Source: Sphyrna mokarran
Lineage: Eukaryota
NCBI GenBank assembly: GCA_024679065.1
Contig: JAGIQG010000002.1
Span: 123,256,001 to 123,320,000 of the forward strand
Direction: 5' to 3'
DNA: 64,000 bases
A program made the translations under genes and the position numbers. A model generated the notes under the pieces. The model had not been told where the DNA came from and searched no databases. It saw nothing but the letters and a program-made list of their open reading frames with translations. Shown piece by piece: positions 11,613 to 54,890 of the stretch. Within the stretch, counting starts at the first letter, position 1, and each line of letters opens with the position of its first letter.

Positions 11613-13064
11613 TGTTGTGAAAATGTAGGAGTCTCTCTGTTAGAGATCCGCAGCAGTCTAAATTTCTAGCAAGACATTGTCACAGACCACAGAAGAAAAG
11701 CTTAATTACTTTTTAGAAAATGGACATCAGGCCTCAGACTGGGAACTACAAGTCCCAGTAGGTTTCAGCAACTCTATGCATGTGCTAGTCCTGAAAAGGC
11801 CACACATGCACAAATCATTCCTTTTAATGGCCTTTAGGTTCTGCACAATGTGCCTGCAGGAAATGGCCACACATGCACAGTTGTGACATATTCTTGTTGT
11901 CAGGGTGGGAACCAGCCCTGTGCACATGCATAGTTTGGTCTTTTCTTCAGGATTTAAAACCAGCTCTGCATCTATACAAGGGGGTAAATGAAGATAAAAG
12001 TAAAACAGCATGGAAGAGATGGTCAGGTGACCCAGAAGGAAATGTCATTATCCAGAGAGACACAGAAAAAGCAACACTGCAAAGAGCAGTCCCAAACTAA
12101 GGAACTGAAAGGTCACAAAAACAGGGAGAGGAGCAGAAGTTCCGAGACTTTCTACTCAAAGGAAAAGAACAGAAATCTGGAAATGGTCCTGTTAAATGAA
12201 GTTCAGAGCAAGGAGCAGAAACTCCACATTAAAAGTCACAGCTGCAAGGTGCAGACCTGGAATAACATTGGGTTGTGAAAAGCCCAAGATCCAAGTAGGC
12301 ACAAAGATTGATCACTCAAAAGTGAATAATTTGAGAGGGATAATTAGAAACCTTCATGGGAAAGATGGAGTTCAGTGATGCAGTTGGTATAGTGTGGCAA
12401 ACATCTGAAAAGAGTTCATGGGAAATCCATAGCATCTACACTGGATGGCATGTCATTTGATATGAGGGTGTGGTGGATTTGACCACAGTTCATCTATTGG
12501 TTTACATGGACTGTATACTTAGAACATTAAGGCATGGTGGCATAGCGGTTAGCACTATTGCCTCACAGTGCCAAGGACCCAGGTTCAATTCCAGCCTTGG
12601 GTGACTGTGTGAAATTTACACACTCTCCCTGTATCTGCATGGATTTCCTCCCGTACTCCAAAGATGTGTGGCTTAGGTTGGTTGGCCATGCTAAACTGCC
12701 TTTAATGGCAGGGGGATTAGCAGCCTAAATAAGTGAGAATTGCGGGGATAGAACTTAGGTGGGATTGTTGTTGGTTCAGGCGCAGAAGGCCGAATGGTCT
12801 CTTTCTGCATTGTGAGGATTTCTATAATTACAGTATTAGATTTTGTAACTTGCATTACCTATGTATAGGTATAGTTGGCGTGAAAGACTATTAAATAGTA
12901 AAATAGTTTTTTTTTGTTTAATAAATATTTTCTTGTTTTGGTGAATGTTTACCGGCAATTACTGTGACTGTTCAGTGGCCATGTATATAAACAAAAAAAA
13001 ATAGGTAGGATCCATCAAGCTGATTCCATCCTGAAATCTGATTTGATCAGCTAGGATCATAACA
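11613..13064 (+). mobile_element. Probable solo LTR with nested SINE
   Basis: TGTTGTGA...TCATAACA termini; AATAAA ~12920; no clear TSD. Confidence 0.55.
12530..12830 (+). mobile_element. HE1/V-SINE-like tRNA-derived SINE
   Basis: A box tggcatagcgg, B box ggttcaattcc, V-domain and CR1-like tail. Confidence 0.85.
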
Positions 13065-14126: not shown

Positions 14127-17119
14127 CATAGAACATAGAACACTATAGCACAAACAGGCACTTCGGCCCACAAGTTGTGCCGATCATATCTATACTTACT
14201 AGGCTATAGAACTATCTGTAACTCCCAATCCCATTAAATCCCATGTACTCATCCAGAAGTCTCTTAAAAGACCCCAGCGAGTTCGCCTCTACCACCACTG
14301 ACGGCAACCGATTCCATTCACTCACCACCCTCTGAGTGAAAAACTTACCTCTAACATCTCCTCTGTACTTGCCCCCCAGCACCTTAAACCTGTGTCCTCT
14401 CATAGCAACCATTTCAGCCCTGGGAAATAGCCTCCGAGAATCCACCCTATCTATTCCTCTCAACATCTTATAAACCTCTATCAGGTCGCCTCTCAACCTT
14501 AGTCTCTACAGGGAGGAGACCTAGCTCTCTCAACCTATCTTCATAAGGCATGCCCCCCAGTCCAGGCAACATCCTTGTAAATCTCCTCTGCACCCTCTCA
14601 ATAGCTTCCACATCCTTCCTATAGTGAGGCGACCAGAACTGCACACAATACTCCAAGTGGGGTCTGACAAGGGTCTTATAAAGTTGCAGCATTACCTCCC
14701 AATTCCTAAACTCAATTCCTCTATTAATGAAGGCCAGTACACCATATGCCTTCTTGACCACATCCTCCACTTGCGGGGCAGATTTAAGAGACCTATGGAC
14801 CCGGACCCCAAGATCCTTCTGCTCCTCAACACTGCCAAGACTCCTACCCTTGATATTATATTGCTTCATCCCATTGGTCCTGCCAAAATGGACCACCACA
14901 CATTTATCCGCGTTGAAGTCCATCTGCCACTTCTCCGCCCAGTCTTGCATCCTATCTATGTCTCGCTGCAACTTCAGACATCCCTCCAGACTATCCACAA
15001 CACCACCAACCTTCGTATCATCGGCGAACTTACTAACCCATCCCTCCACTTCCTCATCCAGGTCATTTATGAAAATGACAAACAGCAAGAGTCCTAGAAC
15101 AGATCCCTGGAGCACTCCACTGGTGACCGACCTCCATGCAGAAAAAGAGCCATCCACAACCACCCTCTGCCTTCCGCAGGCAAGCCAGTTCTGGATCCAC
15201 AAGGCCAAAGCCCCTTGGATCCCATGCCCTCTCACCTTCTCAAGAAGTCTTGCATGGGGGACCTTATCAAACGCCTTGCTGAAATCCATGTAAACCACGT
15301 CCACTGCTCTTCCTTCGTCAATGTGTTCGAAGAATTCAACTAGGCTCGTAAGGCACGATCTGCCCTTAACAAAGCCGTGTTGACTATTCCTGATCATATT
15401 GAATTTCTCTAAATGCTCATAAATCCTATCTCTCAGAATCCTCTCCATCAACTTACCGACCACTGAGGTCAGACTCACTGGTCGGTAATTGCCTGGGCTA
15501 TCCCTATTCCCCTTCTTGAAAATAGGCACCACATCTGCAATCCTCCAATCTTTCGGAACCTCCCCCATCTCCATCGATGACACAAAGATCATCGCCAGGG
15601 GCTCTGCAATCACTTCCCTCACCTCCCACAATAACCTGGGGTACATCCCATCTGGACCCGGCGACTTATCTACCTTGATGGAATTTAACAGTTCCAACAC
15701 CTCCTCTTTCTTAATGTCCACATACTCAATCTTTTCAGTTTGCTGCATTCCTGTAGTACAACCCCCCAGATCACTCTCCACTGAATACTGAGGCAAAGTA
15801 CTTGTTAAGCACCTCTGCCATTTCTTCTGGTTCCACACAGACTTTTCCTTCTTCACCTTTTATAGGTCCTATCCCTTCTCTTCTCATCCTTTTACTCTTC
15901 ACATATTTATAGAATGCCTTGAGATTCTCCTTAATCCTATCCGCCAAAGCCCTCTCGTGACCCCTTCTGGCTCTTCTAATTTCCTTTTTAAACTGCCTTC
16001 TACAAGTCTTATATGCCTCTAGATCCTTAACATCCTCTAGCTCCCTGAACCTACTGTACAACTTTCTTTTCTTCCTAACTAGGTTCATCACAACCTTTGT
16101 GCACCACGGTTCTCTTGTCCTACCAAAACCTCCTTGTCTCACCTGAACATTGTCGTGCAGAGCTCCAGACAAACATTCCTTGAAAATCAGCCACCTTCCT
16201 TCAGTACTTTTCCCCAAGAACACCTCCTTCCAGTTTACTCTTCCAATTTCCTGCCTAATGATTTCATATTTCCCCCTACTCCAGGTAAACACTTTCCTAT
16301 CCTGCCTGATCCTATCTCTTTCCAATGCTATCGTGAAGGAGATAGAATTATGATCACCATTCCCGAGATGCTCTCCTACCGAGAGATCCGACACCTGTCC
16401 TGTTCATTAGCCAGCACCAGGTCAAGTACAGTCTCTCCTCTCGTAGGCTTATCCACGTGCTGTGTCAGGAAACCCTCCTGAATACACCTAACAAACTCCT
16501 CACCATCTGAACCCCTTACCCTGGGGACATTCCAGTCGATGTTTGGGAAATTAAAGTCTCCCATCACGACAATTTTGTTATTTCTACATCTCTCTAGGAT
16601 CTGTTTCCCTATCTGCACCTCAACATCCCTGTCACTATTGGGCAGCCTATAAAAAACATTTAGCAAAGTTTTCGACCCCTTGCTGTTCCTAACTTCCACC
16701 CACAGAGACTCCGTAGACAGTCCCTCCACGGCATCCTCCTTCTCTACGGCTGTGACACTGTCCCTGATCAACAGTGCCACTCCCCCACCTCTTCTACCTC
16801 CCTCTCTGTCCTACCTGAAGCATCTAAATCCTGGCACCTGAAGTACCCAGTCCTGTCCCTGAGACATCCAAGTCTCTGTAATGGCCACCACATCACATTT
16901 CCAAGCAGCAATCCTGGCCCTCAGCTCATCCACTTTATTCACTACACTCCTGGCATTAAAATAGACACACCTCAGACCTTCAGTCTGGGCGCTTCCCTTC
17001 TCCATCACCTGTCTAACCTCCCCCTCATACTGTCTATAATCCTTCTCTACTTGGGAGCTAACCTCCTTGCTCCCAGTCACCTCATCTCGATTCCCTCTCC
17101 CCAACCTTTCTAGTTTAAA
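14127..17119 (-). mobile_element. Young CR1 LINE, nearly complete ORF2 (APE + RT), 5'-truncated, frameshifted
   Basis: ORFs 16811-17104, 16376-16780, 15771-16394, 14468-15856 (YMDFSKAFDKV, QGSVLG, KFADDTK), 14212-14496; (TTCTATG)n tail. Confidence 0.97.
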
Positions 17120-22049: not shown

Positions 22050-22265
22050 GCCAACTCCAGCACACACTGAGGGAGAATTTAGCATAGTCAACGCAAACAA
22101 CATAGTCTTTCGGACTGTGGGAGGAAACCGGAGCATCCAGAGGAAACCAGCGCTGACGTGGGGAGAATATACAGATTCCACACAGATAGTAATCCAAGCC
22201 AGAAATCGAACCTAGGTCCCTGGTATTGTGAGACAGCGGTACTAGCCACTATGTAACCATGCCGT
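22050..22265 (-). mobile_element. V-SINE-like SINE
   Basis: Minus strand ggcatggttacatagtggctag...ggttcgatttct...gtgtggaatctgtatattctcccc. Confidence 0.8.
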
Positions 22266-31984: not shown

Positions 31985-32283
31985 CACAGTGATGCAGTGG
32001 TTAATACTGCTTCCTCACAGCGCCAGGGATCCAGATTCGATTCCTATCTTGGTTCACTATGCGGAATCTGCATGTTCTTCCTATGCATGTGTGGATTTCC
32101 TCCATGTGCTCCAGTTTCCTCCCACTGTCTGAAAGACGTGCTGATTAGGTGCATTGGCTGTGCTAAATTCTCCCTCAATGTACCTGAACAGGTGCCAATT
32201 AGGGGATTTTCACAATAACTTCATTGCAGTGTTAATGTAAGCTTACTCATGGCATATATAAATAAACTTTAGAAAACTTTAAA
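31985..32283 (+). mobile_element. V-SINE-like SINE
   Basis: tRNA head (gatgcagtggttaatactgc...gattcgattcc), V-domain, tail ataaataaacttt. Confidence 0.85.
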
Positions 32284-34936: not shown

Positions 34937-35268
34937 TCATAGAATCCTACATTGCAGAAAGAGGCTCTTTGGCCCATCGAGTCTTCACCAAATACAATCC
35001 TACCCAGGCCCTACCCCCATATCCCTTCATATTTTACCTACTAATCCCTCTAATCTACATATCTCAGGACACTAATTATTTTAGCATAGCCAATCAACCT
35101 AACCTGCACATTTTTGCTGTGTAGGAGGAAACTGGAATACCCAGAAGAAACCCACGCAGACACAAGGAGAATATGCAAACTCCACACAGACAATGACCTG
35201 AGCAGGAATCAAACCCAGGTTCCTGGAGCTGTGAAGCAGCAGTGCTAACCACTGTGCTGTCGGACCAC
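34937..35268 (-). mobile_element. V-SINE-like SINE
   Basis: Minus acagcacagtggttagcactgctgcttcacagc...gggtttgattcc...gtgtggagtttgcatattctcc. Confidence 0.9.
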
Positions 35269-36149
35269 CCTACCATGAACTTTCCAACGAACTTTAATGC
35301 TGCCCAAATTCTTAACCAAAATATTTGAAGTATCTCATAGATTGCAAGACTGACTCACTGAATATCCCCAGAAGATCAGGTTGATGACACCAGTTCACCA
35401 TTTGCAAAGTCACATTGAGGAAAGGTACAGTGTTGCCAAGGTCCCCACAAGGGCCACTATTGACTAGGCTTCCTAAAGATGAGATTTAGATGTTTGTACC
35501 ATCCAAGCATTCCAATATTCTCCACAGAATGTATCCCCGATCAGTGTTGTCTGCTGTGCCCTGCATAGACTCACAAAATAGACGAAGGTGTTTTGGCAGA
35601 GGGAGACATGGAGGACCAAAAAGTATTGACCCATAACAAGATAACCACTTCAATAAGCTCTCAAGATCCTTGTTCTTCTTCCAGTGGCTGCTGTGGACTT
35701 GCAAAATAACCTTCCATTATTTTCATTTGAATTTGATCCCACCTTCTACAGTGGCTCCAAACTTCAGAATATTGCTTCTTGAAGAAACAGAGTGATTCAT
35801 AGTATAGCTGCCAGTTACTTCCATAATTAAATTGCCCCCTAGATCTCACCCTATCTGAGTAGACAAGACTTGAGAGCATCCATCCATCATATGCACCACT
35901 GAAAAAAACAGGAAGTAGGAAAATGCCTGACAGTTGGTTGTTTAATGACCTTAATGAAGAATCTATTGCCAACCTGTCAGCCACTGATTTACCCATTGTC
36001 TGTCTCTGCTGAAATTGATTAGCAGTGAGAATATGCAAGGAGCTGATTCTTGCATATATCCATTTGCATCCAATCTTATCTTGATGGGACCAGTAAAAAT
36101 CTGGCTATTACCTTTGCTTCCTCACAAATCTATTACCTGGTAATAATCT

Positions 36150-40270: not shown

Positions 40271-40529
40271 GAGACTTTGGTATTTATCTAACATGAGACA
40301 GTTTCAGGAAACGAGACAGGAGTTCCAGATAATCCTTGAGAGGAATGATTGGAACTTCAAACAATCTATAGAAGCAAGAGCTAGGAGTCTCAGACAGTCT
40401 TAGAGAGGGAGATAGGAACTTTGGACAGCCATAATAACGTCTGCTCCAATGGGATAATCTAATGATTCAGCAGTGACCTGCTTATCCCCTCAAAACTTAC
40501 ATTGAGGCCACAATCCTTTTATCACCCTG

Positions 40530-41386
40530 CAAATTGGGGCTGTTTTCCTTAGAAAGACATAGACTTAGAGGAGATCTAATAGAGGTGTACAAGATTATGA
40601 GGGGTATAGATAGACTAAACAGGGTTAAGTTTTTTCCGAGGATGGACTCAAATAGCACGAGGGGTCATGGGCTTAGGGTGAGGGGGATAAGGCATAATTT
40701 GGATGCTAGAGGGAGTTTTTTTCACACAGAGGGTGGTGGGGGTATGCAACACGCTGCCAAGTAAGGTGGTGGAGGCAGGCACACTGGAGTTATTTAAGAG
40801 ATACTTAGATGGGCACATGAACAGAATGAGAATGGAGGGATATAGAAAACTGATTTAAAATAGGCATCATGAGCCTTGGGAGTTCCCTGGGAAGTGTGTA
40901 AATTGTCGATGACATTGATGTATTTGTTTTATCCTACAGATATTTCGGTCCGCCTTATCTAACAAGGGGCATACACGTGATGGGTCGTGAGAGGGCTGCT
41001 GTTGGATTTTGAGAGTATCCTTGTGCTTCACGTTGTTAGTGTACGCTTGACCTGGACCAGTTGATGGGCAACATGACAGCTCAGTGACTATTGCTGTGCA
41101 GATACATGGATTTGGGCCTGTGTCTGTGGGAGTTTGCGCATTCTCCCCATGCTTGCGTGGGTTTTCTCCGGGTGCTCCAGTTTCTTCCCACATCCCAAAG
41201 ATGTGCTCTTAGGCTGATTGGCAGAACAAATTCTACATAAATTGTCTCAAATTTGGTTCTAATGCATAGATCTATAAACATAGACAGGGATGACAGGGGT
41301 CATGGGTAGAAATGGGAATATCGAGGTGGTGGCATGGGCTCGATGGGCTGAAGGGCCTGTTTCCCAGGCTGTTTTGTTCTTTGTTC
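40530..41386 (+). mobile_element. CR1 3' fragment with extended SINE-containing 3' UTR (copy A)
   Basis: ORF2 C-terminus 40534-40858, unique UTR, V-domain, GTTCTTT tail. Confidence 0.92.
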
Positions 41387-46837: not shown

Positions 46838-47192
46838 TGCATGGTGGCATTGCTGCTGCACAGCGCCTCACAGCGCGAGGGACCGGGTTCAATTCCAGCC
46901 TTTATGACGTCTGTGTGGAGTTTGCATGTTCTCTGTGTGTCTGCGTGGGCTGGGGAGGGGGGGTTTCCTCCTTATGCTCCAGTTTCTTTCCACAGTTCCA
47001 AGATGTGCAAGTTAGGTGGTTGGCCATGGTAAATTGCCTCTTATTATCCAAAGATTGTAGGCTAGAGAATTAGCAGGGCTAATACGTGGTGTTATGGGGA
47101 TAGAGTCTGGGTTAGATGCTTTGTCAGAGTCCATACAGATTTGATGGGCTGAATGGCCTTCTTCTACACTGTAGAGATTCTATGGTTCTATA
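46838..47192 (+). mobile_element. V-SINE-like SINE
   Basis: tRNA head with ggttcaattcc, V-domain tctgtgtggagtttgcatgttctc, CR1-like tail. Confidence 0.9.
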
Positions 47193-47459
47193 TTAGTGGA
47201 ACTGTCTTCAACCTTAAGTGGTAAAACAAAATAAGTATTGGATGCAGAGGGAGTAGACAGCTCTCACAGTTAATGTTGTGTGCACTCAGCATATATCTTA
47301 TTTCTTGTGCCCTTGCTTTATGTGGGTATCTCCTCAGTCATACTGAGAGCAAAAAGCCATGTGGATGAAAATCATCGGAATGTAGCAACCTCGTGCATGG
47401 ACAACAGTCAACAAAATGTCTGGTGGGCCACATTTTGAACTCTAGTAGACCACATTGGC

Positions 47460-50400
47460 AATTGAATATTCTGGGGTATAAGTGTTTTAGGCATGATAGA
47501 GGTGGTTTGAGGAGAGGAGGGGGAGTGGCGTTATTAGTTAAGGATCACATCATAGCAGTGCAGAAGGAGGGTGGTATGGCTGAGTTAGGAATTGAGTGGC
47601 TATGGGTGGAGTTGAGGAATAGGAAGGGAGAGGTTACTATGTTGGGTGTGTACTACAGACCGCCCAACAGTCCGTGGGCCGTGGAAGAAGGGATATGTAA
47701 GGAAATTTTAGATAAGTGTAGGAAGAATAGGGTAGTTGTAATGGGAGATTTCAATTTCCCTGGGGTAGATTGGAAGGTGCCCAGAGCGGAAGGTGCGGAC
47801 GGGGAGGAATTTGTACAGTGGTTTTAGAAGGGTCCTTGGAGCAGTATGTGGATAGCCCGACTAGAGAGGGGGCTATACTGGATCTGGTTCTGGGGAATGA
47901 GCCAGGGCACGTGGTTGACGTTGTAGTAGGAGAGCATGTGTCTAATAGTGACCACAACTCTGTCTGCTTTAGGGTATTAATGGAAAAAGATGAAGCCTGC
48001 CCTAAAGGGAGGGTGTTAAACTGGGGGAGAGCTAGATATAGCCAGATTAGGCAGAATCTTAGGCATACTGACTGGGATAAGCTGTTCGAGGGTAGGTCGA
48101 CACTGCACATGTGGGAGTCTTTCAAGGGAAAACTAAAATTTTTGCAGGAAAGACACGTGCCGGTAAGGAGGAAGGATGGGAAAGGTAGGATTAGAGAACT
48201 GTGGGTTACTAGGGATGTTGAGGACTTGGTCAGGAAGAAGCGGGAGGCATACGTTAGATCCAGGGAACTGGGGACAGAGGCAGAGCTGGAAAAATATAGA
48301 GAGTGTAGACAGGATCTTAAAAGGGGTGTCAGAAAGGCAAAAAGGGGCCACGAAATGGCTTTGGCAGGTAGGATTAAGGAAAATCCTAAGGCATTTTACT
48401 CCTATGTAAGGAGCAAAAGGATGGTTAGAGGGAAGATTGGACCTCTCAGGGACAGAGAAGGGGTACTATGCTTAGAGCCTGAGGGAATGGGGGAGACCTT
48501 AATGAATACTTTGCATCGGTATTCACGCGGAAGAGGGGCCTGATGTCTGATGCCGGTTTTGAGGAATTTGAGGACCCGTTAAAGGAAATAATAATTATGA
48601 GGGACGAAGAGTTGGGGCTTTTAGGTAGCATAAAGACTTATAAAGCTCCAGGGCCTGATGGTATTTATCCCAGGCTGCTAAGGGAGGTGAGAGATGACCT
48701 TGCTGGGCCTCTGACGCAAATCTTTGTCTCTTCTTTGGACACAGGGGAGGTCCCAGAGGACTGGAGGATTGCAAATGTAGTACTGTTGTTTAAAAAGGGT
48801 CAGAGGGATAACCCAGGGAACTATAGGCCGGTGAGCTTGACTTCAGTTATAGGTAAGCTAATGGAGAGGATTCTCAGGGACAGGATGTATAAGCATCTGG
48901 AGCTCTGTGATCTGATCAGGGATACGCAGCATGGCTTCGTTAAGGGGAGGTCGTGCCTTACGAATCTAGTGGAATTTTTTGAAGAGGTGACAAAAACGTT
49001 TGATGAAGGACAAGCCATTGATGTCGTCTACATGGATCTCAGTAAGCGTTTGACAAGGTTCCTCATGGTAGGCTGATAGAAAAGGTGAAGGCGCATGGTA
49101 TACAGGGCCAGGTATGTAGATGGGTTGAGAACTGGCTTGAGAGGAGGAGACAGCGGGTAGTAGTGGAAGGCTCTTTTTCCAACTGGAGGTCTGTCACTAG
49201 TGGTGTGCCACAGGGCTCTGTACTAGGACCCTTTCTATTTGTGGTGTATATAAATGACTTGGAAGAGGGGGTAGGTAGTGTGATCAGCAAATTTGCTGAT
49301 GACACTAAGATGATTGGATTGGCGGGTACTGAGGAGCAGTGCCTGGCAATACAACATGACATAGATAGGCTGGGAGATTGGGCAGATAGATGGCAAATGG
49401 AATTTAATCCGGATAAATGCGAGGTGATGCATTTTGGCCGGAATAATGTAGAGGGGAGGTATAGGATAAAAGATAAAACTATCCGGAGTATAGAGACGCA
49501 GAGAGACCTGGGGGTGCAGGTTCACAAGTCTCTGAAGGTGTCAGTACAGGTGGAGAATGTGATAAAGACAGCGTATGGTATGTTAGCCTTCATAGGAAGG
49601 GGTATAGAATACAAGAGTAGGAGTCTAATGTTGCAGGTGTATAGAACGTTGGTTAGGCCTCATCTGGAGTACTGCGTCCAGTTCTGGTCGCCATACTACA
49701 GGAAGGATGTCGAGGCCCTGGAGAGAGTGCAGAGGAGAATTACCAGGATGCTGCATGGTATGGAAGGGCTGTCTTACGAGGAAAGATTGAAAACACTGGG
49801 GTTGTTTTCCCTTGAAAGACATCGGCTGAGAGGGGATCTTTTAGAGGTATATAAGATTATGAGGGGTATAGATAGAGTAAATAGTGGTAAGCTTTTTCCA
49901 CCATTAGAAATGGATAGAACGAGGGGTCACGGGCTCAGGGTGAGCGGGACTATGTATAAGACAAATATTAGAGGCCAGTTTTTCACACAAAGGGTAGTGG
50001 GGGTGTGGAATGCACTGCCGAGTAAGGTGGTGGGAGCAGGCACGCTAGGGTTGTTTAAGGTCTCTTGGACAGCCACATGAGCGGTCTGCAGATAGAGGGA
50101 TATAGCAGGACTGTTTGAATATCGGGAGGACCAAATAGTAGTAGACTATCTTTTAGTTTCGTCTCGGGAATGTCTTAGTTTTTTTTTAGCATGTTTAATT
50201 AAGTCTTATTTGTTTCCGCAGGCAATTCGGTCCACCTTGTTGACCAACAAGGGGCATGCAGGCGGCATGTCGTGCGAGAGCTGCTCTTGGAGGTTGCTTC
50301 AGGAGTTGCCTAGTGCTTCACGTCATCAGTGTATGCTTAAACTGGACCATCTGATGGGCAACATGACAGCTCAGAGACTATCGCTGTTGCTGTGCTGATA

Positions 50401-50682
50401 GATGGATTTGGGCCTGTGTCTGCAGGAGTTTGCGCGTTCTCCCCGTGGTTGCGTGGGTTTCCTCCGGGTGCTCCGGTTTCCTCCCACATCCCAAAAATGT
50501 GCTCTTAGGCTGATTGGGTAACAAATTGTCCCTATGTTGGTCCCTATATGGGAATCTTCAACAATAGGCATAGCCTAAAGTCAAGGATATGTCATTAAGA
50601 TGTTAGGACGGCGGCGTGGGCTCGTTGGGTCGAAGGGCCTGTTTCCCATGCTGTGTTGCTCTTTGTTCTTTGTTCTTTGTTT
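47460..50682 (+). mobile_element. Young CR1 LINE, most of ORF2 plus extended SINE-containing 3' UTR (copy B)
   Basis: ORFs 47393-47827, 47770-48543, 48543-49076, 49085-50080; TSD ATTGGC at 47454-47459 and 50683-50688; (CTTTGTT)n tail. Confidence 0.97.
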
Positions 50683-50728
50683 ATTGGCCCCTAGGCCACA
50701 AGTAGCCCATGATTGCTGTAGACTGTTT

Positions 50729-52074: not shown

Positions 52075-54890
52075 TTGTGTCATCCTCATCACTTGCCTGC
52101 CCATTTACTTTTGTCTCATCCATAAGCTTGGCAATAATATATTCACTTCCTTCATCCAAGTCATTGATATTGTAAAAAAATTGTAATCCTAGTGCTAATC
52201 CCTGTGACACTTCACGAGTTGTAATCTCTCTGTCTTTTATCAATTAACCAATCCTCTAACACCATGGACTCCTACTAAGTACAAAAGAACAAAACAGCAT
52301 GGGAAACAGGTCCTTCACCCCAACGAGCCTGCGCCGCCACCCCGATGTTCCCACCTCTACCCGCGATCCCTGTCCATGTTTATAGATCTATGGATTAAAA
52401 ACCAAATTTGAGACAAGTTAGGGAGAATTTTTTTTGCCAATTAGCCTAAGAGCACATCTTTGGGATGTGGGAGGAAACCGGAACACCCGGAGAAAACCCA
52501 CGCAAGCACGGGGAGAATGCGCAAACTCCCACAGACGCAGGCCCTAATCCATGTATCTGCACAGCACAGCGATAGTCACTGAGCTGTTGTGTTGCCCATC
52601 AAATGGTCCAGGTCAAGCGTACACTAACAACGTGAAGCACGAGGATACTCTCGAAAAAAAAATCCAAGAGCAGCCCTCTCACGACCCATCGCGTGTATGC
52701 CCCTTGTTAGACAAGGTGGACCAAAGCACCTGTAGGATAAAAACAAGCACATCAATATCATCATCTATTTACACACTTCCCAGGGACTCCCAAGGCTCAT
52801 GATCCCTATTTTAAATCAGTTTTCTACATTCCTCCATTCCCATTCTGTTCATGTGCCCATCTAAGTATTTCTTAAATAACTCCAGAGTACCTGCCTCCAC
52901 CACTTTACTTGGCAGCGCATTCCATACCCCCAACACCCTCTGTGTGAAAAAACTCCCTCTAGCATCCAAATTATACCTTACCCCCCTCACGCTGAGCCTG
53001 TGACCCCTCGTGCTATTCGAGTCCATCCTAGGAAAAAGCTTAACCCTGTTTATCTATACCCCTTGTAATCTTGTACACCTCTATTAGATCTCCTCTAAGT
53101 CTACGTCTTTCTAAGGAAAACGGTCCCAATTTGCCTAACCTCTCCTCATAACTCAGACCTTCCATACCAGGCAGAATCCTGGTAAATCTCCTCTGCACTC
53201 TCTCCAGAGTCTCCATGTCCTTCCGGTAGTACGGCGACTAGAACTAGACACAGTATTCCAAATGAGGTCTAACCAACTAACCAACATTGTAAGAATTTCA
53301 ACATTAAAGGCCAGCTCTTGTACTCTATACCCCTTCCTATAAAGACTAGCATACCATATGCTTTCTTCACAACCTTCTCCACTTGCTCTGCCACCTTCAG
53401 AGATTTGTTCACCTGCACCCCAGGTCCCTCTGCATTTCTATACTCTTAATAGGTCTACCCTTTATCATATACCTCCCCCCTACATTCTTTCTCCTGAAAT
53501 GCATCACCTCACATTTATCAGAATTGAATTCCATCTGCCATCTGTCTGCCCAAGCTACCAGCCTATCTATGTCCTGCTGCATTGCCTGACAATGCTCCTC
53601 ACTATCCGCAAGTTCAGCCATCTTTGTATCTTCTGCAAACTTGCTGATCACTCCACTTACTCCCTCTTCCAAGTCATTTATATATATTACAAATAGAAGA
53701 GGTCCCAGTACCGAGCCTTGCGGCACACCACTAGTGACCAGCCTCCAGCTAGAAAAACACCGTTCCACTATTACTGTCTGTCTCCTATTACCAAGCCAGT
53801 TACTTATCCATCTAGCTACAGACTATTGTGCAGTATTTTATGGAATGCCTTTTTGGAAATCCAACACCTACTGGTTCTCTTTTGTCTATCTTACTCATTA
53901 CCACTTCAATTCTAATAAAATTATCCGGCATAATATTCCTTTCATGAAGCCATGCAGACTTCGATTATATTGTGTATTTCTAAATGCTTTATTGGAATGT
54001 CATTTATAATGGACTCAATCATTTTCCCAATAGTATATGTTAACATAACCAATCCATAGTTACCTAATTTTTGTGTCCCTCCCTTTTTTGAATAATAGTA
54101 TTACATTGGCAGTTTTGCAATTCTTTGGAACCTTTCCAGAATTTAAGAATCCTTGAAAGATTACTATCTATGCACTACCACTGCATTCACCATCTCTAAA
54201 GTTACTTATTTTAATATCCTGGGATACAATCCATCAGGTGTAGAGGATTTATCCACCTTTAGCACCATTTGTTTTTTTGACATTTTTCTTTAATGAAAGC
54301 TATTGTATTTATTTTCTAACCCCCCTCCCTTGTGTCCTTTGATTATTTAGTATTTTTGGAAAGTTATTAGTGTCTTTCACTGTGAAGACTGATGTACTTG
54401 TTTAACTCCTCTGCCATTTTCTGGTTCCCATTATTATTTCTCCAGTCTCATTCTCTAAGGGGCCTATATTCATTTTGGCCTTTTTTTTAATACATTTAGA
54501 GAAGCTCTTGATGTCCATTTTTAATTTGCTTGCTAGTTTAACTTCATAGGTTATCTTCTCCCTCTTTGTTTATCTTTTGGTCATCTTTTGTTGGTTTTAA
54601 AACTTTCCCGATCCTCTGGCTTACCATTAATGTGCAATACATTTTTTTTCAGTTTAATGCTATTCTTAACTTCCTTGGTTTACCATAGTTGATTTATCCT
54701 TCTTCACTGGGATATATCTTTGTTGTGAGTCATGAACTATTTTCATAAAAGCCACTTTTGCTGATCAGCTATCTTTTCTGCTAAACTTCTTTCCCAGTCC
54801 ATTCCAGCCAACGCTGCCCTTGTTTAAGTTTAGCACAGTTGTTTCTGACCCAGGTTTCTTACTGTCAAACTGAATGCTATATTCTGTGCC
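52075..54890 (-). mobile_element. Older CR1 remnant hosting copy C
   Basis: ORF 52040-52243 (YNINDLDEG...MDETKV) continues at 53820-54890. Confidence 0.8.
52281..53815 (-). mobile_element. CR1 3' fragment with extended SINE-containing 3' UTR (copy C)
   Basis: ORFs 53409-53768 and 52811-53026; UTR close to copy A. Confidence 0.93.

Follow-up and report, generated by a model that had tools for sequence, protein, structure and literature searches.

We find that a clade of CR1 LINEs carries, in its 3′ UTR, the relic of a V-SINE tRNA-derived head together with a V domain; three of its members (copies A, B, and C) lie in the window, the 64-kb stretch of DNA analyzed here. With a probability of roughly 0.7, we propose that this clade copies the head relic and the V domain as one unit, which was likely captured once and has likely been kept as a cis-acting RNA element. 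The elements have a CR1-type ORF2 (apurinic endonuclease and reverse transcriptase) and end 3′ in a stem-loop and a short tandem repeat. They are often truncated at the 5′ end and have short or no target duplications, and their placement in CR1 rests on Pfam, these 3′-end traits, and a tree of the families of this genome. The V core is 86–92% identical to the consensus of the free type-1 V-SINE of the same genome.

The first-pass annotation had described three CR1 copies in the window, and all three are found at about the places it gave: copies A and C as listed in Table 1, and copy B at 47456–50682 (+). As it reported, each continues beyond the ORF2 stop into a homologous UTR (564 nt in copy B, 50119–50682, if measured from the family-frame stop), copy B is the diverged member, with 72–75% identity to copies A and C versus 88% between A and C, and tails are short in the CR1s near 14127 and 21254. 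The A-box-like word that it read in the shared UTR is present in copies A and C but differs by one letter in copy B. The V core it recognized in copy B is real, with 50425–50488 matching 58 of 64 letters of the frog V-SINE Racla when compared by eye with the supplement of PMC5804259; the text of that paper lists Racla's species among the carriers of V domains. The hexamer ATTGGC does stand at both ends of copy B, but its last four letters are the element's own sequence. Because TGGC is also element sequence there, the hexamers form a target duplication that involves microhomology and is weaker than it appears. As an element, copy B is dead, 5′-truncated within the endonuclease domain and with its ORF2 split over several frames; Pfam RVT_1 matches it above the cut-off (E 3e-19 and 2e-8), and the Exo_endo_phos matches in its truncated piece fall just under the cut-off. 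A tRNA gene search of the 64-kb window called none. Free, old V-SINE copies are also present in the window at 35000–35270 (−), 46850–47190 (+), 12530–12830 (+), 31995–32250 (+), and 22060–22250 (−).

Table 1. Anatomy of copy B and coordinates of copies A and C, in positions of the window.
Feature	Position	Strand	Remark
5′ target-site duplication ATTGGC	47454..47459	.	last 4 nt also match element
Copy B CR1 ORF2 remnant (endonuclease + reverse transcriptase)	47456..50118	+	5′-truncated, frameshifted; family-frame stop 50116–50118
Spacer 1	50119..50221	+	ends in branch-point-like word, pyrimidine tract, CAG/G (3′ splice-site-like)
Hairpin block, 134 nt	50222..50355	+	predicted closing stem, small side hairpin, long imperfect rod
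V-SINE tRNA-derived head relic	50356..50415	+	A box 3 mismatches, B box lost by 18-nt deletion
V-domain core	50416..50488	+	
Final SINE-derived stretch 3′ of V core	50489..50534	+	
Spacer 2	50535..50609	+	in most subfamily pairs, aligns no better than shuffled sequence
CR1 terminal stem-loop + (TTCTTTG)n-type repeat	50610..50682	+	nearest to SINE-free sister LINE
3′ target-site duplication ATTGGC	50683..50688	.	
Copy A, 5′-truncated	40529..41386	+	subfamily C member, 93% to C consensus
Copy C, 5′-truncated	52281..53814	−	subfamily C member, 97% to C consensus

Counting copies with the same ORF2–UTR–SINE junction, a check proposed with the annotation, gave at least 33,316 that have one junction (exact occurrences, in the 2.77-Gb genome, whose CR1 and V-SINE content points to a shark or ray, of a 21-letter word across the B-box deletion; reversed control, 0). 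Searches with the B and C UTRs returned 4,073 and 5,491 first-look candidates, with 97–100% identity for the 40 scored for B and about 95% for the best for C. In an unselected sample of 24 stretches of 50 kb (1.2 Mb), a hairpin-block profile found 18 copies (15 C-type, 3 of subfamily D, and 0 B-type), and the C and D clusters take 13 of 140 CR1 3′ ends. The flanks of loci yielded an older subfamily, E. Median identity to the consensus is 0.998 for D, 0.991 for B, 0.979 for C, 0.93 for E, and 0.94 for a SINE-free sister family, S, all biased young because they were taken from best matches. Unselected C copies are 90–98% identical to their consensus, and free SINEs from unselected sequence have medians of 0.848 (n = 32) and 0.845 (n = 15). 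Subfamily D has probably been active very recently. Its 24 best matches (L261–L285) have a median of 99.8% to the consensus, and its spacer 2 is AT-rich.

In a tree of about 330 nt of ORF2, calculated without clusters F1 and F7 (duplicates of C and D), the five chimeric rows fall on one side of a branch at 84/90, and S joins at 95/100; ORF2 support for the chimeric clade is below 95, and the clade is not rejected (p-AU 0.41). The tree of the SINE part, built as foreseen in the annotation from subfamily consensuses and including free SINEs, places the chimeric sequences on one branch at 100/100 among 25 free copies. Both trees give the inner order E,(C,(B,D)), and all five subfamilies have letters in common that both free consensuses lack. 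We regard the structural history as very probable.

The chimera is mobilized with the LINE as a single unit and was carried through subfamily diversification, as the first-pass annotation had supposed. All 30 of the best B-type and all 30 of the best C-type UTR matches extend upstream into ORF2, and in the 1.2 Mb of unselected genome, V follows 54–60 nt after the hairpin block in 18 of 18 blocks. Attachment was counted with exact patterns instead of a SINE-only query because such a query favors matches covering its first bases. The head is attached to the upstream hairpin block in 27,637 exact matches, compared with 154 for an unattached pattern that catches about one third of foreign upstream contexts; among the 100 listed of these 154, 74 are a one-letter slip and still attached to the block. 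The SINE part does not move alone and, borne by the LINE, is not a separate short mobile unit starting at the head, as a V-SINE is. Duplications around the whole unit, a check set beforehand, are in excess over mismatched pairs, measuring at least 5 nt in 14 of 89 copies (2.7% of mismatched pairs) and at least 4 nt in 29 of 89 (11.4%). This excess appears in the junction-bound search only, a loose search giving none (8/71 versus 18/206 controls), and the majority of copies (60/89) have duplications of 3 nt or less. The 5′ ends of copies are scattered. Among 30 B-type copies found with a SINE-part query, 7 have their 5′ truncation within the same 50 T-rich nucleotides that lead up to the hairpin block (equivalent to 50180–50230), a clustering that may reflect a reverse-transcription pause or microhomology.

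Data from other organisms touch the same region. Words of the stretch occur in 19 sequencing runs; the comparison uses the 4 that were aligned to 49600–50455 at 80% and leaves aside the other 15, whose word shares are small. Organisms A, D, G, and I have coverage of the hairpin block and the head, with the cross-species data spanning ORF2, block, and head. Apart from organism A, no contig in the 4 aligned runs reaches from ORF2 into the block. In organism G, one contig joins block and head, and a loose end in that organism seems to resemble the free A box more closely.

Spacer 1 differs in length among subfamilies (103 nt in B, 81 in C, 19 in D, and 166 in E) and ends in all five with a branch-like word, 11–12 pyrimidines of 15, and CAG/G. 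The motif is retained in D, where the spacer is cut to 19 nt, in keeping with selection. Conservation starts at the AG of the motif, and a B copy has 168 YAG sites, just 2 of them with 12 or more pyrimidines. Along with the presence of the motif in all five subfamilies, these last two features speak for a reading in which the acceptor motif is the working part, giving a spliced, non-mobile RNA (for example, ORF1 joined to the 3′ module) that would keep V as its exon or export signal. We consider this reading rather unlikely. No spliced genomic junction recurs among 57 and 68 non-standard upstream contexts, compared with 16,851 standard copies, in two pattern searches that each covered part of the possible upstream contexts. 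No GT..AG joint was found in the read contigs examined, which are of a kind that cannot show absence and in which the RNA label of runs X4 and X16 is a guess. No splice donor is conserved in all subfamilies within the 2.2–3.9 kb examined, a range outside which the 5′ ends of the elements lie.

Selection probably acts on the V core, to judge from its rate of change. Taking the 90 third positions of consensus sequences, with the codon phase verified, as the neutral yardstick, B and C agree at 55/90 third positions and 153/180 first and second positions, and at 106/133 positions of the block, 55/59 of the head, 69/73 of the V core, and 43/45 of the tail (V core versus ORF2 third positions, p 2.7e-7). 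Over six subfamily pairs, V core identity is 0.90–0.97 versus 0.59–0.69 at ORF2 third positions, except B–D at 0.86. Unlike the V core, the spacers are at the shuffled level in B versus C, and spacer 2 identity is 0.53–0.70 over the six pairs versus 0.54 when shuffled. The fold stability of the V core is ordinary (z +0.7).

The hairpin block (123–134 nt) is kept in all subfamilies. B, C, and D have a common rod as its predicted fold (z −4.46, −3.70, and −4.86), even though the D block is 66–78% identical to those of B and C and has no side hairpin. The E consensus blocks fold weakly (z −0.98 and −0.56), and those of the window copies give z −1.85, −3.94, and, for copy A, +1.30. Paired changes on both sides of the fold amount to two pairs, and in pairs with D, the block is no better conserved than third positions (B–D 96/123 versus 77/90; C–D 81/122 versus 56/90). 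An Rfam search returned no family for the block, its 2 matches lying at E 3–4 and far below gathering scores. This fall of block identity in D, the sharp borders of the conserved stretch, and the abundance of free V-SINEs (at least 175 in 1.2 Mb) would suit a module that was captured once but is a passenger, recently swapped among subfamilies or converted by free SINEs. Each swap, however, would need two breaks, given that the two spacers differ and that conservation extends to the tail; moreover, the module and ORF2 trees stand in the same order, and the letters common to the five subfamilies are missing from both free consensuses. We therefore hold such exchange to be distinctly improbable and keep to a module that was captured, inherited, and retained for its effect on the RNA.

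The SINE piece lies inside the LINE's own 3′ UTR, between the ORF2 stop and the terminal stem-loop. Families S and E can be aligned as far as the ORF2 stop and then anew from the terminal stem-loop onward, two points that are about 12 nt apart in S; the insert therefore sits within the LINE's UTR and not at its end. The annotation's description of the V-SINE as the 3′ end of the LINE was not borne out, since the sequence ceases to resemble the free SINE about 46 nt past the V core, and the sister LINE has the same kind of terminal stem-loop and repeat. The E1 tail matches S at 55/60 positions, the free type-1 SINE at 42/60, and four other CR1 families at 43–48/60; the B tail matches S at 50/60. 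There are 254 V matches in the 1.2 Mb, and the 175 with a B box comprise 102 with a type-1 tail, 54 with a type-2 tail, 19 with none, and 0 with an S-type tail, in a count whose head pattern called 19 chimeras, 2 of them false. Free V-SINEs in this genome thus come with two kinds of tail, one CR1-like and one ending A-rich (102 and 54 of 175). We take the type-1 SINE to be probably HE1, a name that follows the table of PMC3747384. We considered and rejected 3′ read-through capture, in which the SINE head would be preceded by the decayed remains of the original CR1 tail; the sister alignment puts the insert before the tail. Replacement of the LINE 3′ end by a whole SINE, tail included, could draw on the derivation of SINE tails from LINE tails (as tabulated in PMC3747384) and on a conceivable extinct SINE with an S-type tail, but it is very unlikely given a tail nearer to the sister LINE than to the free SINE, the lack of S-type tails in 175 free SINEs, and the early end of SINE similarity.

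The direction of capture runs from SINE to LINE, since the older E keeps a full head and the younger subfamilies have a common B-box deletion. Alignment of the relic extends to the very first base of the free SINE. In E, the head is full length and collinear with that of the free SINE, and its A and B boxes carry 2 and 3 mismatches, respectively, versus 0 and 0 in free SINEs; B, C, and D have a common 18-nt deletion removing the B box, which the free consensuses do not have. The intact boxes of a V-SINE are absent from the chimeras, the A box having 2–3 mismatches and the B box being deleted (B, C, and D) or carrying 3 mismatches (E), as scored against a box consensus. Of the two directions named in the annotation, acquisition of the SINE by the LINE agrees with the tRNA-head relic, the stepwise decay, and the sister without an insert, all of which contradict the LINE as donor of the SINE body. 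A LINE UTR as the source of the V domain (LINE pieces can supply SINE bodies, according to PMC5786205) or independent SINE insertions behind several LINE copies have a negligible chance of being right, the former in view of the same three observations and the occurrence of V in a frog, the latter in view of an identical junction in 33,316 copies.

Under the reading we prefer, capture and retention of a cis-acting element, a template switch or recombination would have brought in the acceptor-like motif, the hairpin block, and the front half of the SINE. The promoter decayed stepwise, with a presumed loss of polymerase III initiation, and the five subfamilies inherit the module. With the promoter gone, the acceptor motif, the hairpin, and the V core likely work on the RNA made by polymerase II, in last-exon definition, stability, or export, whereby more RNAs would reach reverse transcription. 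Because the promoter is destroyed yet the core is almost unchanged, the V core likely helps the RNA that carries it; that a role in processing or stability is the reason for its retention has, on sequence grounds, about even odds. More tentatively, the LINE may have domesticated the conserved domain of the SINE, such that the V core, promoter-less head, rod, and a working 3′ splice site would form a needed RNA-processing module and the LINE would now be the main spreader of new V domains in the genome. If true, the V domain works for its carrier RNA, independent of polymerase III.

Conservation of SINE central domains is called a major enigma in PMC5804259, where one explanation is rejected on the ground that LINEs had not been found to contain such domains. 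The V domain described here lies in a coding LINE and evolves much more slowly than the third positions of its codons; a natural control is present in the sister LINE without a V domain and in subfamilies that have decayed to different degrees. Because a LINE fits a retrotransposition reporter, the role of the V domain is directly testable. Repeat annotation would count tens of thousands of these LINE tails as SINEs.

Four known systems resemble this one in part. The table of PMC3747384 pairs HE1, the V-SINE of sharks and rays, with HER1, a CR1-type LINE. There too, a CR1-type LINE and a tRNA-headed V-SINE with similar stem-loop tails share a genome, but only the tail is in common and the SINE is free, whereas here the head relic and V lie within the LINE and the SINE part is not self-mobile. 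In MER6/MER6A, a Tc1/Mariner MITE with a headless V-SINE (PMC6887750), V was likewise captured, its promoter lost, and the host element spreads V; that element is a non-autonomous DNA transposon with no RNA intermediate, whereas the LINE described here is a retrotransposon with coding ORFs that has split into several subfamilies and shows a rate contrast. Other LINEs have SINE-like sequence in a UTR, possibly via recombination with a SINE, but theirs is a 5′ UTR with RTE-derived or head sequence; the paper that describes them reports that nothing resembling conserved SINE bodies had been found, and it names no V domain in a LINE. Chimeric Alu/LINE-1 insertions also hold a SINE and a LINE within one pair of target duplications; those in PMC13174262 are described as single insertions, none being reported to found a family, whereas here the chimera is an active master element. 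Searches of the literature turned up no account of a LINE with a V domain; an unannotated consensus may exist in Repbase or Dfam.

Three further observations concern individual loci. L115, L117, and L118 have an ORF1 frame about 3.5–4 kb upstream of the 3′ end. To us this frame looks esterase-like, and it reads D-G-E-Q-L where the catalytic motif has histidine. Young chimeric copies (L005, L058, L087, and L250) often lie inside other repeats, namely free SINEs and an E-type copy. The flanks of L112, L114, L123, L124, and L126 contain another recurring repeat of about 550–840 nt at 93–97% identity.
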